Notes: generated from the sequence alone by a model not told the origin. A stretch of DNA of 13,620 bases from Oligoflexus sp. (GCA_041736305.1 JBGSTX010000037.1:1-13620); one strand, 5' to 3'. Positions 940 through 13,325 are shown, counted from the first letter of the stretch. Made by a program: numbers and translations.

Positions 940-1305
940 ATGATACAAGCCTATATGCGAGCCATTTTTCGTCTCATCCTGCTAGGATGGGTCGCTCTGA
1001 ATCTCGTTATGGCTTCTGTTCCTCGCTGTGATATGGTCCTGGCGGCTGTCCACAAGTCAGTCACGGCCTCTAACGAACATGATCACTGTGCACCCCAGAA
1101 AACCGGCAAAGGTCCCATCCTGCATGATCATCGCATCTGCGCCTGTGTCCTGGCCAAGCTGGTGTTCGGCCGCACAAGCGAGATCCGTCGTGATCCTATT
1201 GTAACTCGTCAGCCACAAGCTCTATCTGTCATTGAGTTCACCTATCAATTTGCTGTCATCCAACATACAGCAAGCATTGAAACTCCTCCCCCGCGCGCCG
1301 TTTAA
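940..1305 (+). CDS. Small Cys/His leader protein with C-terminal PPPR (paralog 1; candidate DUF2946/CruR-like uORF)
   Basis: Hydrophobic N-terminus, then NLVMASVPRCD, EHDHC, ICAC and IETPPPRAV*. Motifs are shared with three other ORFs in the window. Start could be 940 or 955. Confidence 0.75.
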   Translation: MIQAYMRAIFRLILLGWVALNLVMASVPRCDMVLAAVHKSVTASNEHDHCAPQKTGKGPILHDHRICACVLAKLVFGRTSEIRRDPIVTRQPQALSVIEFTYQFAVIQHTASIETPPPRAV

Positions 1306-1424
1306 TTCATCCCCATTCAACTTATGCGTTTTGAACGAGCAGAATGCTTCTGCGTTCCGGCGTGAACGGCAAATGTTTGCCATTCCGCAACGGAGAGGGA
1401 TGTATGTGCGCAAAGGAGAAACTC

Positions 1425-2108
1425 ATGCAAACACGTCGCAGTCTTTTCATGAAGGCTGGAAATGTACTGGCCGCGCTTACGGTTTATCAGGTGCTGCCGA
1501 AGGAAGCCTTTCGAGTCGGTGAGACAGCCTATGGTGCAGTGAAGACCTTTTCAGATATTCGTGTTCGCTGCATCGGTACGGTTCAGCCTATGCTGGCCAG
1601 TGATCTGATCAAAGGTGTGGCCTTTACCGGAAAAGTCGATGAGGGTGGCCACTCTCATACCTACACGGTATCTCCCGAGCAAATCGCTCAGATCAATGCC
1701 GGTCAGGTCGTGACACTGCGTTCAAGTCAAGGAACAGACGGCAGTGGTCCCCACACTGTGACCATCGATCCCACCCAGCTGCTTCCTGGTGGCAGTTCCA
1801 TTCAGGTGTTTCAATCAGAAAATGGCAATATGGTTGCCTTGCGCTTGGGCAAGGGGGCGCAGCCCTATCTTTATGTGGAGGGAGCGGAAGGCTTGGATCC
1901 TGAGACAGTGAAAGTCTGTATTGGTTTGGCCGCCAGTTGCCAGGCCGAAGGATCCTTCAGCAAGATGGAGCTGATCTCCGAGATCAAGGATCGACAGATC
2001 TTTGGATCGGTTCAGCGCCTTGAGGTGCAAGGGGAAAGTTTGGTCCATGTCTGGGCTACGACTCAGTCCGGTGCCCAGACCAAGGTTGTAGCCAAGATCA
2101 GCAAGTGA
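1425..2108 (+). CDS. Tat-exported protein with paired His-hairpin motifs, putative metal-binding
   Basis: AGGAG SD at 1414-1418 before ATG 1425. Twin-arginine signal MQTRRSLFMK plus a hydrophobic stretch. Internal GGHSHTYTV and GPHTVTI motifs. Confidence 0.75.
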   Translation: MQTRRSLFMKAGNVLAALTVYQVLPKEAFRVGETAYGAVKTFSDIRVRCIGTVQPMLASDLIKGVAFTGKVDEGGHSHTYTVSPEQIAQINAGQVVTLRSSQGTDGSGPHTVTIDPTQLLPGGSSIQVFQSENGNMVALRLGKGAQPYLYVEGAEGLDPETVKVCIGLAASCQAEGSFSKMELISEIKDRQIFGSVQRLEVQGESLVHVWATTQSGAQTKVVAKISK

Positions 2109-2131
2109 TGCCAACACGAAAGGATCATTCT

Positions 2132-2431
2132 ATGAAAAGCTTGATAAGCATGGTTGTCGTCCTGTTTGTTGGCGCGTCCTGTGCCAAGGCACCCAGCAAA
2201 CCCCTTGATACAGGGAGAGTTCAGCAATCCACTGCACCTGTGAGTGCAAATGCCCAGAATGAGCATGCTGATCACGAGCATGAGTTGAATGAAATGAATG
2301 CCGAAGCAGAAGCCCCTGCTGGCTCTGTTCGAGCAGAAGACCTTGAGCTACTCAAAACGTGGCCCAAGGCTCAGTATGTAGGCAATGAACAGCTCCAGCT
2401 GAGCTTTCTGCCTAACGTTCCTTTGAACTGA
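2132..2431 (+). CDS. Small His-rich lipoprotein of unknown function (possibly C-terminally truncated)
   Basis: AAAGGA SD, signal MKSLISMVVVLFVGASC ending in a lipobox-type Cys, and an EHADHEHE tract. Confidence 0.65.
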   Translation: MKSLISMVVVLFVGASCAKAPSKPLDTGRVQQSTAPVSANAQNEHADHEHELNEMNAEAEAPAGSVRAEDLELLKTWPKAQYVGNEQLQLSFLPNVPLN

Positions 2432-2461
2432 ATCTGCTTTAGAAACTTTTGTCGAACTATG

Positions 2462-2491
2462 GAGCATGCTTCCCTCGGAAGCATGCTCTTT
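2462..2491. terminator. Intrinsic terminator-like hairpin between convergent operons
   Basis: Perfect 12-bp stem GAGCATGCTTCC-ctc-GGAAGCATGCTC followed by TTT on the plus strand. It lies between the stops at 2431 (+) and 2505 (-). Confidence 0.7.
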
Positions 2492-2504
2492 CTCGTCTCC
2501 GCTA

Positions 2505-2858
2505 TCAGGCCTTTTTCACCCAGGCCGTACACCAGCCTTTGGACTGCACACAGCCTGTGGCAATCATGGTACACTTGCCGACGTCTTTTCCGTTTGGCGT
2601 GAATAGCTGACAGTTTTGACAGCTTTGATCCTTGCCTTCAACGCCCATTTTTGCCGGGCGATTGGCGGCCTTGGTGGCGTCCGGAACGTACTTGATGGCC
2701 GTCGCCACGGGATCATTCTCTGGGACTGGTTTGCAGGGAACTTCCTCTGCAGCCAGCGCTGGCATGGAGGCCAGCAAGGAGGCCAAGGGAAGACCCGCGG
2801 CGGATAGAGCCAAGAGCTGACGGCGGGACATGGAAAATCTGTGGTTCTGCTTAGGCAT
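2505..2858 (-). CDS. hip: High-potential iron-sulfur protein (HiPIP), Tat-exported
   Basis: SRRQLL Tat signal, DPVATAIKYVPDA, and the HiPIP [4Fe-4S] pattern CQNCQLF...C...GWCTAW. GGAG SD before ATG 2858. Confidence 0.92.
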   Translation of the reverse strand: MPKQNHRFSMSRRQLLALSAAGLPLASLLASMPALAAEEVPCKPVPENDPVATAIKYVPDATKAANRPAKMGVEGKDQSCQNCQLFTPNGKDVGKCTMIATGCVQSKGWCTAWVKKA

Positions 2859-2915
2859 GATCGTTCTCCAAAAAAGTTGGTGAGGCAAACGCTCAGGCCA
2901 AGCGTTCACCTTATG

Positions 2916-4247
2916 TCAAAAACCTGTCCCCTGAGACAGGTCTGAGGGACTGGAGCTATGCAGTGTGAGAAGAAAGCTGAGCAGATCACTCAGCTCCTGA
3001 TCCGTGATGGTAAACCCAGGTTTGACCAGGGCATCCACATAGGGATTCTGACCCGCAGGGGTAGTCGCGGCGCGGCCACCCGCTGCATAATGACGAATGA
3101 CAGCTTCCAAAGTCGGCAAGGATCCATCGTGTCCGTAGGGTCCGGTCTTCCCTACAAAACGCAACGCGGGCACACGAAATTGTCCCATCAACTCCGGCCT
3201 CTTTTCCAATTGGGCAGGAGTCGCAAAGCCCTCATTGCGACTGGGATAGGCACCGTGACCATCCACATTGTATAGACCGGTATTATGAAAGCTTTGCCTT
3301 TGAAAGTAGCGCCCATTCCTCACGTATTGATAGGAATTGCTCAGCATGATTCCTGAGTGGCAGCGGCTGCAGTTCAAAGTTTCACCGGAAGCGAGTGGAG
3401 CCAGACCAAAGAATAGTCGAGCTCCCTTATCTTCCGAGCTTGAAAAACTTTCCATTCCCTGCAAAAAGCGATCAAAACGCGTGTCAAAAGAAATGAGGCT
3501 TCGTTCATAGGCCGCCAGGGCCGCAGTTAAGTGATTATAGTCAATTCGCCCCTTGGCGAAGTCCTCAGGATAGGACAGCTGAAATACTCGCTGGAAGAGT
3601 TCACGGTAAGCCGGGTCGCTCTCCAAGATCCGCTGGAGCGTTTCCTGCTCACGGCCGCGAAGACCCATCTCCACCGGGTCGTCGCCAAAGAGTGGGATGC
3701 GAGCCTGCATTTCCAGGATCGGAAACACAGGATTGGCCCATGTGAGAGTGGAGTAGTAGGCGACATTCAAAAGAGTGGGACTGCTGCGAGGCGTATCCGC
3801 TCCATCCACGCCTTTCGAAGTGGCGAGGCCATCTGTGAAAGCACGATCGGACTGATGGCAGCTGGAGCAGCTGATATTTCCTGGTGCCTGATGCACCGCC
3901 GAGTACGATAGGTTCGTGTCGTTGAAAAGACGGCGGCCAAGCTCGATGATGTCTTCATTCAGAAACGTATCCCGAGTCAAAGGCGGGTCGAGGCGCTTGT
4001 TCTGAAGCCGGCCCAAAGGAAGATAAGGCTCGGGGTAAGCTCGAGGAATCCTATCGGCGAGCCATATCTTGTATGCGTCGTGTAAGGCCAGAGTCTCTGT
4101 ATCCAGATCTTCCGTATAAGCACTTTCCGCCTCATCGACCTGAAACTTCTGCCAGAGAGAGGCGGCCAGTGAGCCCTGCCGCTCATCTGCTGAGCAAGCC
4201 CCAAAGGTGAGTGGCAAAAGTGCGATGATGAAGCGGAATGCTTTCAT
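2916..4247 (-). CDS. mbnH: Di-heme cytochrome c peroxidase/MauG superfamily, MbnH-like lipoprotein (copy 2)
   Basis: Two CxxCH motifs (CSSCH, CSRCH), LGRRLF, TWANP, FHNTGLYN, FRVPALR, HDGS..TL..VI.HYAAGG, lipoprotein-type signal (TFGAC). Directly downstream of an MbnP-like gene. Confidence 0.85.
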   Translation of the reverse strand: MKAFRFIIALLPLTFGACSADERQGSLAASLWQKFQVDEAESAYTEDLDTETLALHDAYKIWLADRIPRAYPEPYLPLGRLQNKRLDPPLTRDTFLNEDIIELGRRLFNDTNLSYSAVHQAPGNISCSSCHQSDRAFTDGLATSKGVDGADTPRSSPTLLNVAYYSTLTWANPVFPILEMQARIPLFGDDPVEMGLRGREQETLQRILESDPAYRELFQRVFQLSYPEDFAKGRIDYNHLTAALAAYERSLISFDTRFDRFLQGMESFSSSEDKGARLFFGLAPLASGETLNCSRCHSGIMLSNSYQYVRNGRYFQRQSFHNTGLYNVDGHGAYPSRNEGFATPAQLEKRPELMGQFRVPALRFVGKTGPYGHDGSLPTLEAVIRHYAAGGRAATTPAGQNPYVDALVKPGFTITDQELSDLLSFLLTLHSSSPSDLSQGTGF

Positions 4248-4256
4248 AAAAACCTC

Positions 4257-5204
4257 TTATGGAGCCCAGGAAAACAGGCTTTGCTCGTAAGGTGCCTTGG
4301 CATTGGCTACTTCCAGACCCAGGGCCTTGAAGGCGAATGCGCAGTTGGGGGCGTTTTCCGTCATGACCTTATTGCTGTTGTTGCAGGCGCTTTCCAAGGA
4401 GTTGACAAAGCTTGTGGCATCGACGGGAAACAGCCGGCTGAGGTCCATCTGCACTGTGACTTTGGAGGCATCGGCATCCTGCAGGTGCTGAATGGGAATG
4501 CTGATCTGGCGTTTATTGGCGCTGGTCAGAGCGTTCAGCATCTTCTTGCTTGTGCCGCTGTGCATTTCGATCTGAATATCAGCTGGGAAATGCTGCCACA
4601 TCCAACCCATATCGCTGGGGGCAAGGGCGGCCGGAACCTGAGTCAGGGCTTCATCCATAGGCGCATAGGGGAGTCCGAGCTGAAAGCGGATTTCCTTGTA
4701 AACGCCCTGCTGCAGAAGTCCTGTAATCTCCGACTTCAGCTTTTTCGTGGCATCAGAAGACGCGCAGGAACTTTCCAGGAAGTTCAGCAGCGAGATGCCA
4801 TTGCCTGCGGCATCCACATACTGCAGGTTGCTGCTGTTATCGGCGACGTCGAGTTCAATGCGCTGCTCTTTGCCTTGATCATCGACCAAGGTCAGATTCG
4901 ACACGAAAAGACGCAGGTCGGTAAAGATCTGACCACTTTGCAGCGAGGCGGCTGTTTTATCGGTGCAGACCAGCTCATCCGCTCCCACCTTGGCCTTGAA
5001 TTGAACGGCCACCTTTGAGGATTGGGTTCGATCCAGAACCGGAGGGGCAGGCACAGGTTCGGCTACTGGCAGAGTTACAGGCGCCGGCGCGGGCGCTGGG
5101 ACGGTGGAAGCATCTGCCGTCCGCGTCTGATCTACAGACTTTGAGGACTGCGAGCCGCATTGAACGACGAAGGGAAGCAGAACCGGAACCAAAAATCTTT
5201 TCAT
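4257..5204 (-). CDS. Divergent MbnP-like WxW copper-binding lipoprotein (copy 2)
   Basis: Signal ending in Cys, Pro/Ala-rich linker, F.AKVG...L.C, DLRLFVSNLTL, RFQLGLP and MGWMWQ (WxW). Collinear with the 7614..8504 protein and adjacent to mbnH. Confidence 0.7.
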   Translation of the reverse strand: MKRFLVPVLLPFVVQCGSQSSKSVDQTRTADASTVPAPAPAPVTLPVAEPVPAPPVLDRTQSSKVAVQFKAKVGADELVCTDKTAASLQSGQIFTDLRLFVSNLTLVDDQGKEQRIELDVADNSSNLQYVDAAGNGISLLNFLESSCASSDATKKLKSEITGLLQQGVYKEIRFQLGLPYAPMDEALTQVPAALAPSDMGWMWQHFPADIQIEMHSGTSKKMLNALTSANKRQISIPIQHLQDADASKVTVQMDLSRLFPVDATSFVNSLESACNNSNKVMTENAPNCAFAFKALGLEVANAKAPYEQSLFSWAP

Positions 5205-5213
5205 GAGAACTCC

Positions 5214-6422
5214 TTATTCCATAACCGCAGTGGGAGAATCCGAGCTGATCCGGTAGGACCAGACGAATCCCACAACACCCATATCTTTCTTGCGACCGCT
5301 GGTAAAATCGCGAAGCCATTCGCCGCGCAGTTTCAATTCCGGATTCCATTGCCAATTATAGGCCGCACTGATGCGATAAGGATCCTTATCACCTATGAGA
5401 TTGGCAGCAGTGGCAAGAGCTGTCGCCGCCGCTCCTGAGAGTTCGTTTTCAAAAAGTAGGCGCTCGTAGCGGATGGCGGCCAGCTGCGTATCGGTTTTGA
5501 AGTAAGCGCTGGCCCAGTGAGCTCGGGCCTTACTTTCAAGCGGCGATAGACGGGTGGCATCACGCAATTCTCCTTCGCTTCGGCTCAATTGCATTTCCCC
5601 TTCGGCCCCGAATGTTATCTGTTCTCCGAATTCCAGACTGGCATGAAGGCCCTGCACCTGGGTGCGACCTGAGAACCAGTAGACGGGAATGGTGCTGGTA
5701 TCGAGTCCATGATTGTGCTCAGCACTGTAGCGATTGTCTTTCCGCCTGTCCGCTTCACCCTGATAATGAAAGAGCCCAAAGCTCCAGCCCAAGCCGGCGG
5801 TCCGCATACTGTGCCGGAGGTAGACATCGAAGGCTCCTTTGGCAGCATCCTTACGTTCTGCAGGAAAGCTGTCGCCTTGCCAGACTTCCAGACCCGTTTC
5901 CAGACCGAGATCTTTCAAGGACGCTCGCGCCCTAAGGCCCATATCGTTATACTGCCGCCCCCAGAACGCGTCATAGACCAGAGGGCTGTCTGAGAATGGC
6001 GTTTGACTGGGATGGGGGCTGTTGTATGGGGTCATGACCGAACTCATGCGGCCGAACTCCAGAACACCTGCGGCTCCGAGCCTCTGACCGACCAGGGCAT
6101 GTTCCAGCTCCAGGCCGTCGGCACCTGTATGCTGGCCGATCTTGATCAAAGCATAAGATGAATTCTGGCCCACGGATCCGCTCAGCATAGCCTCGTCCAG
6201 GTGAAAACCGCGCGGCATGGGCAAGGCCTCACCGCCCATAAGGAAACCAGGAATGATCCAACGTTCGGAGCTCTTGACTCTTGCTAAAGATCTGTAGCTC
6301 CCAGCCACTGTGCTTTGGGCTGACCAACCGTCAGGTATGCCCAGGGTCGCTTCTTCTTCATGAGCCGAAGCCAGGCTGCTGACTACGAGAAGGGGTAAGG
6401 CGCGAAGCGCTATGCGTTGCAA
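5214..6422 (-). CDS. Outer-membrane beta-barrel porin/receptor without a plug domain, His-containing (putative metal channel)
   Basis: Sec signal ending ASA, then HEEE. Alternating amphipathic strands (YNWQWN, LRGEW, VGFVWSY) and an EHNHG loop. At about 400 aa it is too short for a canonical TonB-dependent transporter. Confidence 0.7.
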   Translation of the reverse strand: MQRIALRALPLLVVSSLASAHEEEATLGIPDGWSAQSTVAGSYRSLARVKSSERWIIPGFLMGGEALPMPRGFHLDEAMLSGSVGQNSSYALIKIGQHTGADGLELEHALVGQRLGAAGVLEFGRMSSVMTPYNSPHPSQTPFSDSPLVYDAFWGRQYNDMGLRARASLKDLGLETGLEVWQGDSFPAERKDAAKGAFDVYLRHSMRTAGLGWSFGLFHYQGEADRRKDNRYSAEHNHGLDTSTIPVYWFSGRTQVQGLHASLEFGEQITFGAEGEMQLSRSEGELRDATRLSPLESKARAHWASAYFKTDTQLAAIRYERLLFENELSGAAATALATAANLIGDKDPYRISAAYNWQWNPELKLRGEWLRDFTSGRKKDMGVVGFVWSYRISSDSPTAVME

Positions 6423-6433
6423 AGTCCTGTTCC

Positions 6434-7600
6434 TTATGGTTGACGCCAGGGATCAGCAAAGCGGGGATTGCTGATGAAATCCTGATCAGTAAAACTTTCC
6501 AAAAATTCGATGAGGTCATTTTTTTCAGCTGCATCGAGTGTGAAGCCTGTGACGAATCCGTCCTTAAATGGATTTTTCCGTCCGTCCCCACTCAGGGGAC
6601 CACTGGTGATATGACGTCCGCCCGCAGCATAGAAATCGAGGACCTCGCTGAGCGTGGCAATGCTGCCGTCATGCATGTAGGGGGCTGTCACTGCAATATT
6701 GCGTAAGGAGACAGCGCGGAACTTCCCCATATCGCTGCTTTTGCCGCTTATTTCGAAGATCCCACGATTGCGACTGGGGTAATCGCCCTGGCCGTTGATA
6801 TTGAAAAGACCGGTGTTGTGAAAGGGTCTTTCGATAAAACTTGTCGTGCGATCGAAGTTCGAGTCCGTAAGATTGTAGCTGCCGTGGCAGTGAAAGCATT
6901 CCATGCGTTCGCTGAAGAAAAGTTGGCGACCTCGCTGGGCGCCGGCGGAGAGGGCAGCAGGTTCACCCCGCTGAAAGCGATCGAATGGGCTATTGAAGCT
7001 GGTAAGGCCGCGAACGAAGACAGCCAGCGCGTCCACGATTTGATCGCGAGTATAAAGTTCATTTGCGTCAGGGAACGCAGCTGCGAAAAGTTCCTGATAG
7101 CGAGGGTCGCTGCGCAGCTGATCCTGAACGCGCGGAAAGCTGCTCTCGGTGAGGCCTTGTTCAATCGGATTCTCGCCAAAAAGAGGCAAAAGAATCTGCT
7201 GCTCGAGTTGCCTCAGGTTGGGATTGGCCCAGGTCAATGTCGGAACGTAAGCCACGTTCACAAGGGACATTGAACTGCGCGGATGACTTTCCCCAGTCGA
7301 CCCCAGGGCCAGCGCGCGTCCGTCGGTAAAGGCCTTATCCTGCTGATGGCAGGATGCGCAGCTTTGTGTTTCGTTCCCGGAGAGGCGTTTTTCGTAAAAC
7401 AGATGGCGTCCGAGTTCAAAGCGTGACTCGGTCATGGGCTTGTCAGGGGGAATGAAGGGCAAGGGGACATTGTCAGGGATATTCCAGGCAAAGGTTTCCG
7501 CACTGGTATCCTCCTGGCTTTGAAAACGCGTTTCACTCTGATCCTGGCATGCCGGGCTCAGCATCAGGGTGAAGGCGATAAATTGCAGGGTGAAACGCAT
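6434..7600 (-). CDS. mbnH: MbnH-like di-heme enzyme (cytochrome c peroxidase/MauG superfamily), lipoprotein (copy 1)
   Basis: Start reassigned to ATG 7600 (GAAAGG SD; MRFTLQF...SPAC signal). CASCH and CFHCH, LGRHLFYEKRLSGNETQSC, TWANP, FHNTGL, PYMHDGS, FYAAGG. Confidence 0.92.
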   Translation of the reverse strand: MRFTLQFIAFTLMLSPACQDQSETRFQSQEDTSAETFAWNIPDNVPLPFIPPDKPMTESRFELGRHLFYEKRLSGNETQSCASCHQQDKAFTDGRALALGSTGESHPRSSMSLVNVAYVPTLTWANPNLRQLEQQILLPLFGENPIEQGLTESSFPRVQDQLRSDPRYQELFAAAFPDANELYTRDQIVDALAVFVRGLTSFNSPFDRFQRGEPAALSAGAQRGRQLFFSERMECFHCHGSYNLTDSNFDRTTSFIERPFHNTGLFNINGQGDYPSRNRGIFEISGKSSDMGKFRAVSLRNIAVTAPYMHDGSIATLSEVLDFYAAGGRHITSGPLSGDGRKNPFKDGFVTGFTLDAAEKNDLIEFLESFTDQDFISNPRFADPWRQP

Positions 7601-7613
7601 GGCAGACGACCTT

Positions 7614-8504
7614 TCATTCCACGAAAAATACGCTCTGAGATTGACCATTGGCAGGCTGCCCCGTTGTGAGATCCAGCCCGAGCTTTTTGAAAAATTCGGA
7701 ACACTCGCTATCGGCTTTCTCGGACATGCAGCCTGGTGTGTCTTTAACATCGGAAGCCAAATCAAGTCCTTCCACGAGTTTTGCAAAGTCAAACACTATG
7801 GTGTCACGCTGAGGTTCGAAGTTATCCAGTTCCACATAGGGACGATTATCACGGGCACAGCTCACAGTTTGACCCAGTTCGGCTTCCCCACTACAATGGG
7901 TGCTGCCGAGGTGAAAATTATAAACCGTGGCGGAAAAATCGGGGTCGGACGGTCGGGTGATGCCGCCTTCAGGCGCAATATCCAGGCGCATGAATTTGTA
8001 GCCACCTTGCCAGGACCAATAGAGGCTCGGTGTGTTCAAAGGCCCCTGGGCCTGGGCTATATCGATATGATTCATATCGGGAGGAACGCCGATACGAAAG
8101 CGCAGGCCTTGGATAGCCGCTCGACTGCTGATGGTTCCGCTCGCTTCGGTATGCGTGGACTTGACTTCACCTTCGCAGTTGTCCGCACGATCCTGAAAGT
8201 CGACGAGCGCCAGCCTTGTATTTTGCCATTCATTGCTGTCGAAACTCAGACTCTCGCTTTGTCCATCGGCTGTTATCACTTCAACGTCGCTGACGAAGAA
8301 GCGAAAATCCTTCAAACGTGCGGTAGACTTGGAAAGGCCAAGATCGGCCAGCCGAGCGTCACAGTTTATAGCTGTGCTGCCTGCCCGGGCGGCGAACGAT
8401 AGCCGCAGGCTCTGGGCTGTGATTGTCTTGCTGCTGTCTCCTCCACAGCTGACCGCTCCGGCGAGAAGGCAAGGCGCAAGGAAAATGCTGGCCGATGTTC
8501 GCAT
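7614..8504 (-). CDS. mbnP: MbnP family copper-binding lipoprotein (copy 1)
   Basis: Lipobox AVSC, DFRFFVSDV, WQ....ALVDF, GLRFRIGVP..MNH, PLN...YWSWQGGYKFMRLD (WxW), FHLGSTHC, GCMS. Directly upstream of mbnH. Confidence 0.9.
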   Translation of the reverse strand: MRTSASIFLAPCLLAGAVSCGGDSSKTITAQSLRLSFAARAGSTAINCDARLADLGLSKSTARLKDFRFFVSDVEVITADGQSESLSFDSNEWQNTRLALVDFQDRADNCEGEVKSTHTEASGTISSRAAIQGLRFRIGVPPDMNHIDIAQAQGPLNTPSLYWSWQGGYKFMRLDIAPEGGITRPSDPDFSATVYNFHLGSTHCSGEAELGQTVSCARDNRPYVELDNFEPQRDTIVFDFAKLVEGLDLASDVKDTPGCMSEKADSECSEFFKKLGLDLTTGQPANGQSQSVFFVE

Positions 8505-8515
8505 GGATAGTCTCC

Positions 8516-9167
8516 TTAGATTTCCGACGCACTGAGTTTAAGATTCTTCTGCTCGGCTACGATTTTTTGCAGATCGGCCGCCAGCAGTCCAGGGGCCAAA
8601 GGCGGATCATAGACGGCTCGCCATTGACCCGCGGGGTCGACCAGGAAAATTTTGGGGGAATGAGCCATCATGTAAATGTCCACGTTATGAGGGTCCTGCT
8701 GCTCTTTGGCAAAGCCAACGTGGAAGCCGGAGGCGAAAGCCTTGACCTGATCGACTGTCCCTGTCACGCCGCGGATCGCAGGGTGATAATTGCGAACGAA
8801 GTCCGCAAGCTTGCTGGGCTCATCGTGCTCGGGATCGACGGTGATCATGACGAACTGAAGCGCGCTGAGATCGCTGGGCGTGAGGCGGGCCATCTCGCTT
8901 TTGAAGTAGCCCATCACCATGGGGCAGACTGTGGTGCAGCGGGTAAATCCGAAGAAGACCAGGGACCATTTCCCTTGCCATGACTCCTTGGTGAAAGGCT
9001 GCCCGTTGGCATCCGTAAGGGCAAAGTCGGGGAGCTTTCTTTTGAGCCTTGCCCAGTTCCTCGCCTTTGATATCCAGACGCTCGACCTGTGGCTCGAGCC
9101 GTTGGATGATAGAGAATATGACGACGAGACTGAAGACAAGTATAAATGGCCACTTCAATTGCTTCAT
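8516..9167 (-). pseudogene. sco: SCO/SenC copper chaperone split by a single-base frameshift near 9036-9043 (or a sequence error)
   Basis: The N-terminal membrane anchor MKQLKWPFILVFSLVVIFSII...KAQK (ATG 9167, AAGGT SD) is in one frame. LPDFALTD...GFTRCTTVCP (CxxxC)...TVDPEHD...MAHS is in the +1 frame. Confidence 0.85.
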
Positions 9168-9284
9168 TATGCAACCTTATTCGAAGGTATGGACAGAGGA
9201 TCGCCCACGACTGCTTATACGTCGATGGACATGAGATGCACCCAAGCCTATGGATTCTGTTTATGGAAAAAAATGAGGAGGCGT

Positions 9285-9656
9285 TCAGACTCGAGGCGGG
9301 GGAGCTTCGACTTCAAGAATGTTGCTGGCCATGACCGTGAGTGAGGGAAAGACGAGGACCCGCTCCGACGTCGGTACGAAGCGATAGTCGCGTTCCGTGA
9401 CGACGTCCGGAAGAGTAAAGACGAGGCAGCTGAGGAGATGGCATTGGCAGAGACCGGCTTCCATCAACTGGGCACCTTTGTCAGCTGGCTTTGACGCAGA
9501 CTGATGGCAGGACATCTCCACTTTGGCAAGCTTGTCTGGCGTATCTTGCAGGCTGCTCCAGACCTCTTTCACAAAGCCACAACGGGGGACCGATGCCAGC
9601 ATGAGGTTTCCGCTCAGCAGGAAAATGCCAAGAAAGAGCATTAGTTTTCTGAACAT
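9285..9656 (-). CDS. Small Cys leader protein with C-terminal PPPR (paralog 2), first gene of the sco-mbnPH operon
   Basis: MFRKLMLFLGIFLLSGNLMLASVPRCG, MSCH, LCQC and VEAPPPRV*. Start could be 9656 or 9668. Confidence 0.8.
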   Translation of the reverse strand: MFRKLMLFLGIFLLSGNLMLASVPRCGFVKEVWSSLQDTPDKLAKVEMSCHQSASKPADKGAQLMEAGLCQCHLLSCLVFTLPDVVTERDYRFVPTSERVLVFPSLTVMASNILEVEAPPPRV

Positions 9657-9700
9657 AGTTCTCAACACGGATACCGAGTCCTCTCGTGGCTAACGGCGTG

Positions 9701-9729
9701 AGGCTAGCAAAACATTTTAGAGTTTACAA
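9701..9729 (-). promoter_or_regulatory. Candidate sigma70-type promoter for the leftward operon
   Basis: Minus strand reads TTGTAA-17 nt-TAGCCT with TG-n immediately before the -10 (extended -10). Confidence 0.45.
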
Positions 9730-9751
9730 GACGCTTACTTCGATCACATCA

Positions 9752-9780
9752 TTGTATCAGCGCACGAGTTCTGCTAAGCT
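9752..9780 (+). promoter_or_regulatory. Candidate sigma70-type promoter for the rightward operon
   Basis: TTGTAT-17 nt-TAAGCT with TG-n extended -10; mirrors the leftward candidate. Confidence 0.5.
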
Positions 9781-9842
9781 CCGAGCGTTTACTTCAGGAG
9801 TCGACGATTTTGTTTTTGCTTTCGTGCAGCCATGTCAAAACT

Positions 9843-10133
9843 ATGAGCAGTCGTATGGGATTACTGCTGCTGGCCTGCAATCTTTTTGTCTGCTCCATTC
9901 CCCGCTGTGATTTTCTGCGCGCACTTGTGCAGGATACCAAGGACACGTTGCTTGCTGATCAAGATGACCAGAATTCGATGCATCACTGCCATGAGAGTCC
10001 CACATCGGACTCGCGAGATGCGACGCAGCTCAGCGAGCCCAGGCTCTGCAAATGCGAGCTTCTGAGTTTCGTAAGCACTTTGCCACCGGGACCTATACGA
10101 TGTGCAAATTCTGTGAGGTCTTGCGCTCTTTGA
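9843..10133 (+). CDS. Leader-family paralog 3, lacking the PPPR tail (possibly truncated)
   Basis: NLFVCSIPRCD, MHHCH and LCKCELLS align with the other paralogs. The ORF stops 25 aa after CxC, and the alternative frames give no PPPR tail at the expected distance. Confidence 0.7.
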   Translation: MSSRMGLLLLACNLFVCSIPRCDFLRALVQDTKDTLLADQDDQNSMHHCHESPTSDSRDATQLSEPRLCKCELLSFVSTLPPGPIRCANSVRSCAL

Positions 10134-10510
10134 ATATTTTGCTGCGAGTCGAACATTATTTTAATCGCCTGGCCATCCTTGTGTTGGTCATAAACATCTG
10201 CGTGGTATCCATCCCACGCTGTGATAGCGTCTTCGCAAGTCTTAAACATCAGCTCCTTCATGAGGATGGTCGCACGGCTCTGGATTGCGGCCAGGCTGTT
10301 TCCCCGATTCACAAGGGGGAGACTATTCAGAATGCTTCGCTCTGCCGCTGCTCTATTTTGAAGTTTCTATATTTTACCGATAGCGCACTCAGGATGGATC
10401 GCTTTATCGTCTTCGATAGGCGCTTGCTTCTGCTCATTGAATTCATCGAACCTTTGCGCCTTCTGTCGCAGACCATTCAGCCTGACCCGCCTCCTCCACG
10501 ACAGATATAG
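10130..10510 (+). CDS. Small Cys leader protein with C-terminal PPPR (paralog 4)
   Basis: INICVVSIPRCD, LDC, LCRC and PDPPPPRQI*. Start uncertain: TTG 10130 overlaps the paralog 3 stop (TTGA) and has GAGGT upstream; ATG 10100 is an alternative. Confidence 0.75.
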   Translation: MNILLRVEHYFNRLAILVLVINICVVSIPRCDSVFASLKHQLLHEDGRTALDCGQAVSPIHKGETIQNASLCRCSILKFLYFTDSALRMDRFIVFDRRLLLLIEFIEPLRLLSQTIQPDPPPPRQI

Positions 10511-10611
10511 ACGGACCGACGTTTCACCATGAGTCCTGATGCGCAAAAGTCAGATGAGGGCCTCCTTGCGCCCGCTTGTTCCTACATTCTGTCAAGAAAG
10601 GTAAACTGCTC

Positions 10612-11997
10612 GTGGATTTTCCAATCTTCCACTTGGATTTTCTGAACAATAGATTCCTGATAGGCATTATCGCTGTCCTCCATGTTCTCATCAATCATCC
10701 GCTGGCTGTTGGGGGTATTCCTCTGGTTGCGCTTTTGGAATGGAAAGGCACCAAAGCTCCTGAAGGCCAATCGAAACTCTGGGACGATCTGGCTTTTCGC
10801 ATCCTCTTCGTCTTCTTCATTGTGACCACAACGGTTGGGGCCATGACGGGGGTGGGGATTTGGCTGTCGGCCTCGCTGGTGAATCCCACCGCCATTGGAA
10901 GTCTGATCCGGGTATTTTTCTGGGCCTGGTTTGTCGAGTGGATAGTTTTCGTAACCGAGGTGGTCCTGATTCTCTATTACTTTCTTTCATGGCACAAACG
11001 ATCCCAGGATAAGCGCAAACATGTCCGCCTCGGATTCATACTGGCCTTCGCTTCCTGGGTTACGATGGCTATTATCACGGCCATACTCGCTTTCATGATG
11101 GATCCTGGAAACTGGCAGACAGATCGCTCCCTTTTACAAGGATTCCTGAATCCTTTGTATCTGCCTCAGCTGCTCTTCCGCACACCTTTGGCTATGGTCA
11201 TGGGCGGAGCTGCGGGTTTGTTTCTTTTGCCATTTTTCACCAAAGGCAAGGAGCAGCTCCGGCAACAGGCTGGACGTACCATTGGGAAGTGGATGCTGGC
11301 CTGGTTGCCTGTGCTCGGGGCTGCCAGCGTCTGGTATTACCTGGCTGTACCTGATGCCATGAAGGCTAATCTTTCGGTTGCCAACACAACGCAGGAGTTC
11401 ACGAATTGGTATGAAGGTTTGGTTTATTTGATGATTACGGCGATTGCTGTGGTGACGGCAGTGGCGTCTGCGGCTTCCCTGGGGCGCCTCAAATCCAGCA
11501 GTTTCTTGAGCATGGTGCCCTTTGTGATCCTGCTCATGCTTTTGAGTCACTTTGAGCGCGTTCGTGAGTTCATAAGGAAACCCTATGCGATTGGACAGTA
11601 TCTTTATTCCAACGGTCTGAGGGCCGCTGACTATCCTCTTTTCAAGCAGGATGGTCTTTTAAAGCATGCTGCCTATTCAAGTATCAAAGAGATTACGGCT
11701 GACAATCGTCTGCAGGCCGGCCGCGAAATCTTTGTCATCGCCTGCTCGCGCTGCCATACTCTGAACGGCATCAATAATGTTCGCAATAACCTTCTGAAAA
11801 TGTATGGAGAGCCACCCTATTTCGTCGAGAATCTGCGCAAGTTCATGGGTGTCATGCACACGGCCCGAGGCTATATGCCTCCATTTCCAGGCAATGAATC
11901 GGACGCCGACGCTTTAGCTCGTTACCTGATTTATGTCAGCGAGAATGAAGATGTCATTCCTGGATCTCAGACCACCGGCTTGCGACTTACACGCTGA
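10612..11997 (+). CDS. Cytochrome bd oxidase subunit I (CydA)-like membrane protein fused to a C-terminal cytochrome c
   Basis: GTG 10612 after an AAGAAAGG SD. Multiple TM helices with CydA-like segments IAVLHVLI, VGAMTGVGIW, VEWIVFVTE, FMMDPG, FLNP and REFIRKPYAI. CSRCH heme motif and a YMPPF Met ligand candidate. Confidence 0.8.
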   Translation: MDFPIFHLDFLNNRFLIGIIAVLHVLINHPLAVGGIPLVALLEWKGTKAPEGQSKLWDDLAFRILFVFFIVTTTVGAMTGVGIWLSASLVNPTAIGSLIRVFFWAWFVEWIVFVTEVVLILYYFLSWHKRSQDKRKHVRLGFILAFASWVTMAIITAILAFMMDPGNWQTDRSLLQGFLNPLYLPQLLFRTPLAMVMGGAAGLFLLPFFTKGKEQLRQQAGRTIGKWMLAWLPVLGAASVWYYLAVPDAMKANLSVANTTQEFTNWYEGLVYLMITAIAVVTAVASAASLGRLKSSSFLSMVPFVILLMLLSHFERVREFIRKPYAIGQYLYSNGLRAADYPLFKQDGLLKHAAYSSIKEITADNRLQAGREIFVIACSRCHTLNGINNVRNNLLKMYGEPPYFVENLRKFMGVMHTARGYMPPFPGNESDADALARYLIYVSENEDVIPGSQTTGLRLTR

Positions 11998-12008
11998 AAG
12001 GAAAAGCC

Positions 12009-13325
12009 ATGTCAACTCCTGCGAACGGGCCCATGCCCCATGATATCCCTTTGCCTTTGCCTGCTCCCGAATGGCTATTGGTATCGCTATTGGTCTTCTC
12101 TTTTCTGGTTCACTTGCTTTTCGTCAATCTGATGGTGGGAGGGTCGCTCCTGACCCTTGCTTTTGAGTGGGTCGGATTGAAACGCAAAGATTTTGATAAA
12201 CTGGCTCATGAGATCGCCCGCACCGTAACGGTTAACAAGAGTCTGGCTGTGGTTATGGGTGTGGCTCCTTTGCTGCTGATCAATACACTCTATACAGTTT
12301 ATTTCTATACAGCGAATGCCCTTACCGGTCTTGCATGGATCATGATCGTTCCCCTGGTCGCGACAGCCTTTCTACTGACCTATCTCCACAAGTACAGTTG
12401 GGAAAGACTCAGCGAGCATAAGCTGCTGCACCTGGCGATCGCCGTTGCTGCCTCGCTTATTTTTCTGTCCATACCCCTTGTGTTTCTGGTGAATATCAAC
12501 CTGATGCTGTTTCCGGATCGATGGCGGGATGTTGAAGGCTTTGTGAGTGCACTGATGCTGCCGAATGTCTGGCCGCGGTATCTGCATTTTCTGTCTGCCT
12601 GCTTTGCCGTGACTTCACTCTTTCTTGTGTTTTACTTCAGGCGTGCTAGCTATCCTTGGGATTCAAATTTCAAGGATCTGCGGCGCAGCGAGGCTCTTAG
12701 GATTTTCTACAGCATCACTTTGATCAGCAGCTGTGCTCAGTTCATCATCGGCCCCATGGTCTTCGTCACACTTCCGGCTCAGGGCGTCTCATGGACTATG
12801 AATGTGATTCTTGGTCTTGGGATAGTGTGTGCGCTTCCCGCCCTTTACTGGACCTGGCAGGAAATTGCGGACAGCAGCGAGCAGCGTGGTGAGCGGGCTG
12901 TGAAAATTGCTTTGATGCTGAGCCTGACCGTTATCTGCATGGTCTCGGCTCGGCACGTCTATCGTTCGAAATCTCTGAACGCACACCAACAGAAGATGGC
13001 GGAGCATACTGAAGCCTATGGACAGGCGGTGCTTGACGCGCAAAAAGCTGCCAGGCGCGAGAGCTTAAAGCAGGGCCAGGGCGATCCAGGAGAAAGGGTC
13101 TTCAAGAGCTACTGCACGGCCTGTCACGCTTATGGGAACCGATTGGTCGGTCCTCCTGTGACCGAAATACAAGCTTTGTATCAAGGTCGGCCTGAAGGCA
13201 TTGCTCAGTGGGCAAAAGCGCCGGGCAAGAAGCGAGCTGATTACCCACCCATGCCCGCAATTCCCATAAGTGAAAAAGAACTGCTGGAGGTGGGCGAATA
13301 TATGCTCAAGATGAAAGGCGACTGA
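12009..13325 (+). CDS. Second CydA-homologous membrane subunit fused to a C-terminal cytochrome c
   Basis: AAGGA SD. VHLLFVNLMVGG, VVMGVAPLL, PRYLHF, about 8 hydrophobic segments, then CTACH, VGPP and PPMP. Confidence 0.78.
   Translation: MSTPANGPMPHDIPLPLPAPEWLLVSLLVFSFLVHLLFVNLMVGGSLLTLAFEWVGLKRKDFDKLAHEIARTVTVNKSLAVVMGVAPLLLINTLYTVYFYTANALTGLAWIMIVPLVATAFLLTYLHKYSWERLSEHKLLHLAIAVAASLIFLSIPLVFLVNINLMLFPDRWRDVEGFVSALMLPNVWPRYLHFLSACFAVTSLFLVFYFRRASYPWDSNFKDLRRSEALRIFYSITLISSCAQFIIGPMVFVTLPAQGVSWTMNVILGLGIVCALPALYWTWQEIADSSEQRGERAVKIALMLSLTVICMVSARHVYRSKSLNAHQQKMAEHTEAYGQAVLDAQKAARRESLKQGQGDPGERVFKSYCTACHAYGNRLVGPPVTEIQALYQGRPEGIAQWAKAPGKKRADYPPMPAIPISEKELLEVGEYMLKMKGD

Follow-up and report, generated by a model that had tools for sequence, protein, structure and literature searches.

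Small Cys-rich proteins with C-terminal proline motifs head copper-related operons in Oligoflexus and are candidate metal-responsive arrest leader peptides

The closest described counterparts of the system considered here are two leader proteins of copper operons, CutF and CruR. CutF of Rhodobacter capsulatus, encoded by the first gene of cutFOG (Ozturk et al. 2021, 2023; bioRxiv 2025), is described as a 118-amino acid (aa) protein with a Sec signal, a C69xxxC73 motif and the C-terminal sequence P109EPEGPPPRL118. According to these accounts, it is a periplasmic copper sensor, and copper enhances a stall at PPP, which opens a stem-loop that would otherwise cover the cutO ribosome-binding site. 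Copper control is reported to be lost upon a PPP-to-PAP change or deletion of the tail, EF-P is involved, and CutF acts in cis only, its mature form being undetectable. Gaps behind CutF-like genes are given as mostly under 100 nucleotides (nt), and the rules for CutF-like proteins (Ozturk et al. 2023) include a length below 150 aa and an N-terminal signal peptide; the main text of that paper does not mention Oligoflexia, Bdellovibrionota or MbnP. CruR of Bordetella pertussis (DUF2946, PF11162; Roy et al. 2022) is reported to carry CXXC at residues 90–93 and RAPP at 139–142, the 45 intervening residues being conserved in number within 1–2 and functionally important, and to be followed by an intergenic region of 162 nt. 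In that account, a bubble in which C exceeds G is the loading site of Rho, the stall blocks Rho, and CruR functions without its signal peptide. CruR homologues are described at the head of operons with Sco, PCuAC, YcnI, CopC, MbnPH-like and AhpC_TSA genes, with long intergenic regions behind them. Other work states that RAPP/RGPP upstream open reading frames (uORFs) ahead of metal genes are widespread and reports arrest of CruR in vitro. Here, we analyzed four small open reading frames (ORFs), copies A to D, in a 13,620-nt stretch of DNA from Oligoflexus sp. (GCA_041736305.1, JBGSTX010000037.1:1-13620), hereafter the window, which a preliminary description had proposed to represent a new system of metal-sensing, cis-acting arrest leaders. 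Judged by their likeness to CutF and CruR, copies A, B and D are probably cis-acting translation-arrest leader peptides of the same kind, responsive to copper or a thiophilic metal.

The four ORFs noted in the preliminary description were all recovered (Table 1); only the start of B was moved, to a GTG at 9668 with GAGAGGA upstream, the ATG at 9656 lying in the same frame. They share a hydrophobic N-terminus with N-x4-S[VI]PRC[DG], a lone Cys beside His or Asp (DHC, SCH, HCH or DCG) and a CxC motif. As judged from hydropathy alone, each N-terminus consists of a basic n-region followed by about 18 hydrophobic residues (mean Kyte–Doolittle value 1.8–2.1), which form a single hydrophobic segment. 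A family profile detected six copies in the window's own genome with E values from 1.6e-58 to 1.1e-14, indicating that the resemblance among the copies goes beyond chance. A, B and D end in [ED]-x-PPPR plus one or two residues, as had been described. Copy C, which aligned to residues 11–106 of a 132-aa full-length relative with 45% identity, has lost about 26 C-terminal residues, as the alignment stops at residue 106, and is on this comparison a decayed, truncated remnant; the TTG start of D overlaps its TGA.

The distance between the second Cys of CxC and the first Pro of the tail was 46 or 47 residues in 71 of 73 alignment rows (range 46–49; three rows are the window's own proteins, entered twice), after 7 of 80 rows had fallen outside the motif expressions (copy C, four sequences that are truncated or partial, and two in which the residue before PRC varies). 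CxC was invariant across the family, and the distance from PRC to CxC was variable, ranging from 36 to 61 with 18 distinct values in 66 rows. The basic residue of the tail was followed by 1–2 residues in 51 of the 73 rows; the tail motif was PPPR in 32, PPYPK in 18, PPPPR in 5, PPYPR in 5 and of other types in 13. When other families were counted in the same way, the distance was 50–51 residues in 33/33 DUF2946 proteins and 48 in 21/36 SilD-like proteins, and the published positions gave 48 for CruR and 41 for CutF.

By these features the copies resemble CutF. The preliminary description had taken PPPR in place of RAPP as the mark of a new system, but CutF has the same E-x-PPPR-x-stop ending, and A, B and D agree with the CutF-like rules in length, tail and operon context: all four copies are shorter than 150 aa, A, B and D carry PPPR or PPPPR 1–2 residues from the end (C is without a tail through truncation), and SCO1, MbnP/MbnH, HiPIP and cytochrome c proteins are encoded behind the gaps. 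The likeness to CutF extends to the small size (118 vs 121–127 aa), the position as first gene of a copper operon, an N-terminal export signal (here signal-like), a Cys-based copper motif in the mature part, the Tat- or Sec-exported downstream proteins and, for copy A, a predicted masking of the Shine–Dalgarno (SD) sequence by the stall region. Compared through published motifs and positions, not through sequence alignment, the two differ in the sensor (PRC...C-H...CxC here, CxxxC in CutF), in the Cys-to-Pro distance (46–47 vs 41), in the gaps, which are about 100–120 nt here, and in the targets, which are SCO1/MbnPH, HiPIP and membrane cytochromes instead of a multicopper oxidase. With CruR the copies share a similar size, the position of a uORF heading copper operons (Sco and MbnPH-like operons among them), an N-terminus that resembles a signal, a semi-conserved early Cys together with a Cys pair, a spacer of constant length (about 45 residues) before a Pro-Pro motif 1–4 residues from the end, a long intergenic region and a 3′ C>G bubble. 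Unlike CruR, they have CxC instead of CXXC, end in PPPR, PPPPR, PPYPK or PPYPR instead of RAPP, do not match PF11162 and, as far as searched, are absent from Proteobacteria; the invariant motif that ends the hydrophobic segment suggests that export matters here. The tail motif identical to that of CutF, the agreement with the CutF-like rules and the fact that DUF2946/CruR leaders had already been reported at the head of Sco and MbnPH-like operons together mean that the claim of a new system was overstated; the proposed assignment to a class of metal-sensing, cis-acting arrest leaders nevertheless fits all features that can be tested from sequence.

Two further kinds of system show parallels. 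SilD/CusD-type 'copper resistance proteins' of Cupriavidus and Ralstonia, which are nodes of the CutF-like network, have a Cys right after the N-terminal hydrophobic segment, a central Cys motif and about 48 residues to an R-PPPR or APPPP run, and lie upstream of metal genes, as the window family does; unlike that family, 29 of 36 SilD-like sequences continue for 10–13 more residues (LAILHCCFR) beyond the prolines. In SecM, VemP, MifM and ApdA/ApdP, too, the nascent chain is exported or inserted into the membrane, carries a C-terminal arrest motif and controls the next gene in cis, but these peptides monitor translocation, use RAGP, RAPP and other motifs, and are without Cys sensor motifs.

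The family is narrowly distributed. A profile search of 1.84 billion representative proteins gave only 68 matches (clusters) at E<=0.001, and the family motifs were present in all of them except one repetitive 999-aa protein; nine close homologues (41–90% identity) all end in PPPR plus one residue. Strong genome matches were limited to one family of Oligoflexales, in 15 of 21 genomes and the window's own, with 1–8 copies per genome; elsewhere in the phylum, 3 of 109 genomes gave marginal matches (E 0.001–0.008). Searches of Pfam, NCBIfam, PHROGs (0 matches) and PDB profiles (0 matches) returned nothing meaningful for the leader family, the sole NCBIfam match, CbrC, being at chance level (14.9 bits against a cut-off of 300), and a related-locus search of genome contigs with one family alignment gave no confirmed relative. 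The nearest named relatives of a leader-neighbouring gene came from Oligoflexus, Pseudobacteriovorax and Oligoflexales metagenome-assembled genomes (MAGs).

Each of the three transcription units of the window opens with a leader copy, as the preliminary description had stated, and the gaps behind the complete copies (Table 1) are long compared with the spacing of 9–16 nt inside the operons. The same arrangement was seen in 34 related loci, in which no same-strand ORF of at least 100 aa ends within about 150 nt upstream of the leader, tandem leaders excepted. In 32 leader-gene pairs the median gap was 112 nt (range 42–264). The downstream genes, classed by N-terminal similarity with 17 representative proteins scanned against Pfam, encode lipoproteins of 160–183 aa (11/32, two of them with sub-threshold YtkA-like matches), Cys-rich lipoproteins with a cytochrome c domain (8/32), SCO1 (5/32), membrane cytochromes (3/32), HiPIP (2/32), Tat-signal proteins (2/32) and a second leader (1/32). 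SCO1 lies behind both B (PPPR) and the leader of locus L031 (PPYPK), and the membrane-cytochrome gene lies behind D (PPPPR) as well as behind the leaders of L009 and L115 (PPYPK). This occurrence of PPPR and PPYPK leaders ahead of the same gene types in different genomes argues that the two tails are functionally equivalent.

In the mechanism that we propose, translation of the leader is likely to stall at the prolines. The invariant S[VI]PRC closes the N-terminal segment, which would act as signal or anchor, and C-H and CxC would supply further Cys/His ligands. With the prolines in the peptidyl-transferase centre, CxC would lie about one tunnel-plus-translocon length away, as CutF and CruR suggest, and by the same analogy metal bound to the emerged Cys/His ligands would alter the force on the nascent chain and thereby lengthen or shorten the pause. 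Two routes could carry the stall to the operon. In a CruR-like route, favoured for B and D, the paused ribosome would keep Rho off the gap and the C-rich 3′ end of the leader; we consider this quite possible, with doubt slightly ahead of belief. In a CutF-like route, the ribosome would free an SD sequence paired with the Pro codons or with the region after the stop; this is predicted for A and the relatives of B, and we regard it as possible but distinctly doubtful. For B and D a CruR-like read-out is probable, for A a CutF-like one, and the step from the stall to an operon beyond a gap of about 110 nt is the least certain of the mechanism.

Folding of the RNA bears on these routes unequally. 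For copy A, the region 1279–1428 had a minimum free energy of -50.4 kcal/mol (z -2.83; 1 of 200 shuffles as stable), whereas a first fold of the gap that excluded the Pro codons gave z -1.25. The predicted helix pairs CUCC 1286–1289, in the codons for P116–P117, with the SD sequence GGAG 1415–1418, and GCGCGC 1293–1298 (P118–A120) with GUGCGC 1406–1411, so that a ribosome on the prolines would cover both 5′ arms. The SD-to-stall-site pairing probability was 0.71, which was reached by 2 of 25 shuffles. In four relatives of B, AUCGC..CCU directly after the stop pairs with AGG..GCGAU immediately ahead of the SCO1 AUG. The two arms do not vary among these relatives, whereas the interior does, with a single compensatory change in one interior pair; pairs without variation are no proof. 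The gap behind B in the window starts with ACGCCUCCUC, which is conserved in the relatives, and pairing to the SCO1 SD region is predicted there but not in the window. When folded one sequence at a time, the gaps behind B, D and two paralogues proved no more stable than shuffles (z +0.30, -0.07, -0.80 and -0.06), the gaps of the B-type leaders likewise showed no structure beyond that of shuffles, and promoter and terminator scans of the gaps gave nothing above shuffles. Across the 32 pairs, the probability of pairing between the SD sequence and the stall region was at least 0.4 in 15. C exceeded G in the last 150 nt of the leader in all 32 pairs, by 12.5% on average, compared with 2.5% in the 5′ part, and Rho is encoded in the window's genome. 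An EF-P domain, which bears on polyproline stalling, was not found in this genome (92.7% complete), but it is present in 12 of 13 same-genus genomes, and its absence is therefore probably an assembly gap.

Several observations weigh against an arrest-leader function. The function of the family is drawn wholly by analogy, and the same family stands ahead of a bufferin-like operon as well as of genes with a putative role in acquisition or delivery (SCO1, MbnPH), for which a single logic is not obvious. As regards the RNA, an ortholog of A (L030) is without A's predicted pairing (0.02), the SD-to-stall-site probability is only 0.01 for B and 0.02 for D (whose SD sequence is AAAGGU), and family-wide masking averaged 0.32, compared with 0.25 when the stall site was shuffled with its composition preserved (Wilcoxon p 0.57), and only 6 of 32 loci beat 23 or more of their 25 shuffles. 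Terminator scans found no intrinsic terminators in the gaps, and the C>G excess may be explained by the amino acids of the C-terminal half (Pro, Leu, Ser, Thr and Phe). We know of no ribosome stalling at PPYP. In addition, residues between CxC and the prolines are conserved (F97, F107 and ER.L.F), which could reflect a folded mature domain rather than only a ruler. This last point is also what would be expected if the proteins were stable, trans-acting copper chaperones or thiol-redox proteins, periplasmic or membrane-anchored, with the proline end as an interaction tail and the operon position incidental. About 120 aa are conserved over the full length, with four conserved Cys, a His and the hydrophobic residues just mentioned, SD masking across the family does not exceed the control, and CutF itself was first read in this way, in the discussion of the 2021 paper. 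Against this, the leader always opens its unit and is separated from the next gene by about 110 nt, although the operons are otherwise tightly spaced; the Pro motif stays 1–2 codons from the stop, and the ruler keeps its length although indels are tolerated elsewhere in the protein. Moreover, the C-terminal motif is identical to that of CutF, which is reported to act only in cis without detectable mature protein, and copy C has lost precisely the tail and the gap. We therefore consider stable trans-acting proteins improbable.

A further point against the assignment is that homology to known leaders was not detected. The PF11162 profile matched none of the four window copies at E<=10, none of 60 family members at E<=1, and nothing above the cut-off in 131 genomes of the phylum. 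With 60 family sequences as input, hhalign gave a probability of 1.7% for a match to 40 SilD-like proteins, which have two relatives carrying PF11162, and 0.16% for 33 PF11162 proteins, the latter a low-diversity template. The comparison with DUF2946 that the preliminary description had called for thus revealed no link, and the sequence family stays distinct. An extremely diverged branch of DUF2946/CruR would be a sub-case of the arrest-leader reading, in which copper is sensed in the cytoplasm, the signal peptide is dispensable and termination depends on Rho. It would account for the colinear layout, in which the hydrophobic N-terminus contains an invariant Asn (replaced by Gln in SilD) and is followed by an early Cys, a pair of Cys residues, some 46–50 spacer residues and PP near the stop. 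The operon types, long gaps and C>G bubble are also shared, and the best hhalign segment against the DUF2946 set placed the C-H..CxC region opposite C..CC. Such a branch nevertheless seems rather unlikely, given the profile and hhalign results, an arrest motif that matches CutF and not RAPP, and the invariance of S[VI]PRC where the hydrophobic segment ends, which argues for a role of this segment, in contrast to CruR.

The kind of system is thus not new, being already represented by CutF and CruR. What is new is a lineage-restricted sequence family unnamed in databases, with its own sensor motifs, a second tail variant (PPYPK), many copies per genome, tandem leaders and some new target operons. 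A bolder proposal, tentative and in our view on the unlikely side, is that these proteins form a third, independently evolved family of metal-sensing arrest leaders, which has converged on the 46–47-residue ruler and PPPR-x-stop, with E-PPYPK as an interchangeable ending, and which serves as the main post-transcriptional copper regulon in one Oligoflexales family, with 6–8 copies per genome heading SCO1/MbnPH, HiPIP, bufferin-like RiPP (ribosomally synthesized and post-translationally modified peptide), lipoprotein and membrane-cytochrome operons, some of them as tandem two-input gates. If A, B and D are working arrest leaders, the CutF/CruR principle, in which the nascent chain senses metal at a distance of one tunnel plus channel from a proline stall, would be bound neither to one protein family nor to Proteobacteria. 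The conserved essence would then be the Cys-to-proline ruler, which spans 41–51 residues in four of the five families compared and has a mode of 48 in the fifth (SilD-like, range 27–51). It would also follow that paralogous leaders can run a whole set of copper operons in one genome, that tandem leaders suggest combinatorial control, and that PPPR/PPYPK pairs ahead of the same gene types amount to a natural experiment on which proline contexts metal can gate. For annotation, the family supplies a name and a test for 'hypothetical' small ORFs missed by Pfam and NCBIfam.

Table 1. Leader copies, gaps and downstream genes in the window (downstream gene starts were set by comparison with homologues)
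Feature	Coordinates	Strand	Description
Leader copy A	940..1305	+	121 aa; hydrophobic N-terminal segment, SVPRC (Cys30), DHC (Cys50), CAC (Cys67/69), C-terminal ETPPPRAV; family profile E 3.6e-43
PPPR codons of copy A	1285..1296	+	CCU CCC CCG CGC
Gap behind A	1306..1424	+	119 nt, to ATG 1425
Unit A gene 1	1425-2108	+	227 aa, twin-arginine-like N-terminus; without family match
Unit A gene 2	2105-2431	+	108-aa His-rich lipoprotein-like ORF; without family match
HiPIP, last gene of unit B	2909-2505	-	Twin-arginine-like signal
MbnH-like gene, second copy, unit B	4247-2916	-
MbnP, second copy, unit B	5204-4257	-
402-aa protein between MbnP/MbnH pairs, unit B	6422-5214	-	Without family match
Di-haem peroxidase, MbnH-like, unit B	about 7597-6434	-
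MbnP, first copy, unit B	8504-7614	-
SCO1/SenC, first gene behind B	9167-8516	-	Frameshifted
Gap behind B	9168..9284	-	117 nt, to ATG 9167; begins ACGCCUCCUC
PPPR codons of copy B	9291-9302	-	Before stop
Leader copy B	9285..9668	-	127 aa; SVPRC (Cys30), SCH (Cys54), CQC (Cys74/76), C-terminal EAPPPRV; family profile E 1.6e-58
Leader copy C	9843..10133	+	96 aa, truncated; SIPRC, HCH, CKC; without proline motif; family profile E 1.1e-14
Leader copy D	10130..10510	+	126 aa; SIPRC, DCG, CRC, C-terminal DPPPPRQI; family profile E 7.9e-39
PPPPR codons of copy D	10487-10501	+	Before stop
Gap behind D	10511..10611	+	101 nt, to GTG 10612
Unit C/D downstream genes	10612..13325	+	Two polytopic membrane proteins, 461 and 438 aa, C-terminal cytochrome c domain in each

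The tabulation of downstream neighbours that the preliminary description had suggested thus places SCO1, HiPIP, cytochrome and lipoprotein genes behind the leaders. In the window, the genes behind B (2505–9167, minus strand) form one long operon with two MbnP/MbnH pairs. The sixth paralogue of the window's genome, at L005 (contig C159, minus strand, 3–1884), ends in EPPVPHPKFY and heads an operon in which it is followed by a 230-aa Cys-rich lipoprotein with a cytochrome c domain and then by an MbnB/TglH/ChrH enzyme (259 bits); by its gene content this is a bufferin-like RiPP operon behind a putative leader. Among the Cys-rich lipoprotein loci, this was the one whose flank reached the gene next to the lipoprotein. 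The small, Cys-rich leaders with their signal-like N-termini could on this account be taken as exported precursors of a Cys-modified natural product, processed by MbnB-like enzymes, the more so as a same-genome paralogue heads an operon with such an enzyme. The separate 230-aa Cys-rich protein directly precedes the enzyme, however, in 24 of the 32 leader-gene pairs the downstream gene is of a type other than this Cys-rich protein, the enzyme itself being confirmed at L005 only, and such precursors offer no role for a proline tail or a ruler, all of which makes a precursor function very improbable.

The SCO1/SenC gene behind B (8516–9167, minus strand) is split over two frames at an A-rich run at about 9040–9060 of the window: translation from ATG 9167 gives the N-terminal anchor, the frame of 9139 gives the SCO1 domain, and four relatives have a single frame. 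Two other runs of the same study yielded low-depth contigs across the split that show no differences, and for this reason it is probably a real frameshift or programmed slippage and not an assembly error.

Comparison with a metagenome relative, L115 (minus strand, 1216–2284), bears on the origin of the C/D arrangement. There, a full-length C-type leader ending in EPPYPEA is followed after 190–208 nt by a D-type leader ending in EPPYPKAP, and this after 90 nt by a membrane-cytochrome gene. Since L115 carries two full-length leaders, the ancestral arrangement ahead of membrane-cytochrome genes was two leaders in tandem; relative to L115, the first leader of the window is without tail and spacer, about 280 nt being lost in all. 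Contigs from other runs of the same study, including run X2, match the C/D junction without differences. In the likely source run, contigs break at 10419–10448 of the window, inside copy D, where a minor path (depth 6 vs 22) diverges after a common 30-mer; contigs of two other runs span the site without differences.

Behind D, the preliminary description had named a bd-type oxidase. This label was not supported: the genes at 10612–13325 gave no PF01654 match at E<=10, only the C-terminal cytochrome c domains were matched in Pfam and NCBIfam, and the membrane part of the 461- and 438-aa proteins has no Pfam or NCBIfam name. Relatives of this pair, with C-terminal cytochrome c on the membrane proteins, number 221 and come from Bacteroidota, methanotrophs, Alphaproteobacteria and others (loci L034–L113). 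At four of these loci, L075, L079, L082 and L087 (three Cyclobacteriaceae MAGs and one Cytophagales MAG), unrelated small ORFs lie ahead of the membrane-cytochrome pair. They have an N-terminal hydrophobic segment and end in HPP plus 1–3 residues, with CxxxC also in L075 and L082, and may represent another leader family.

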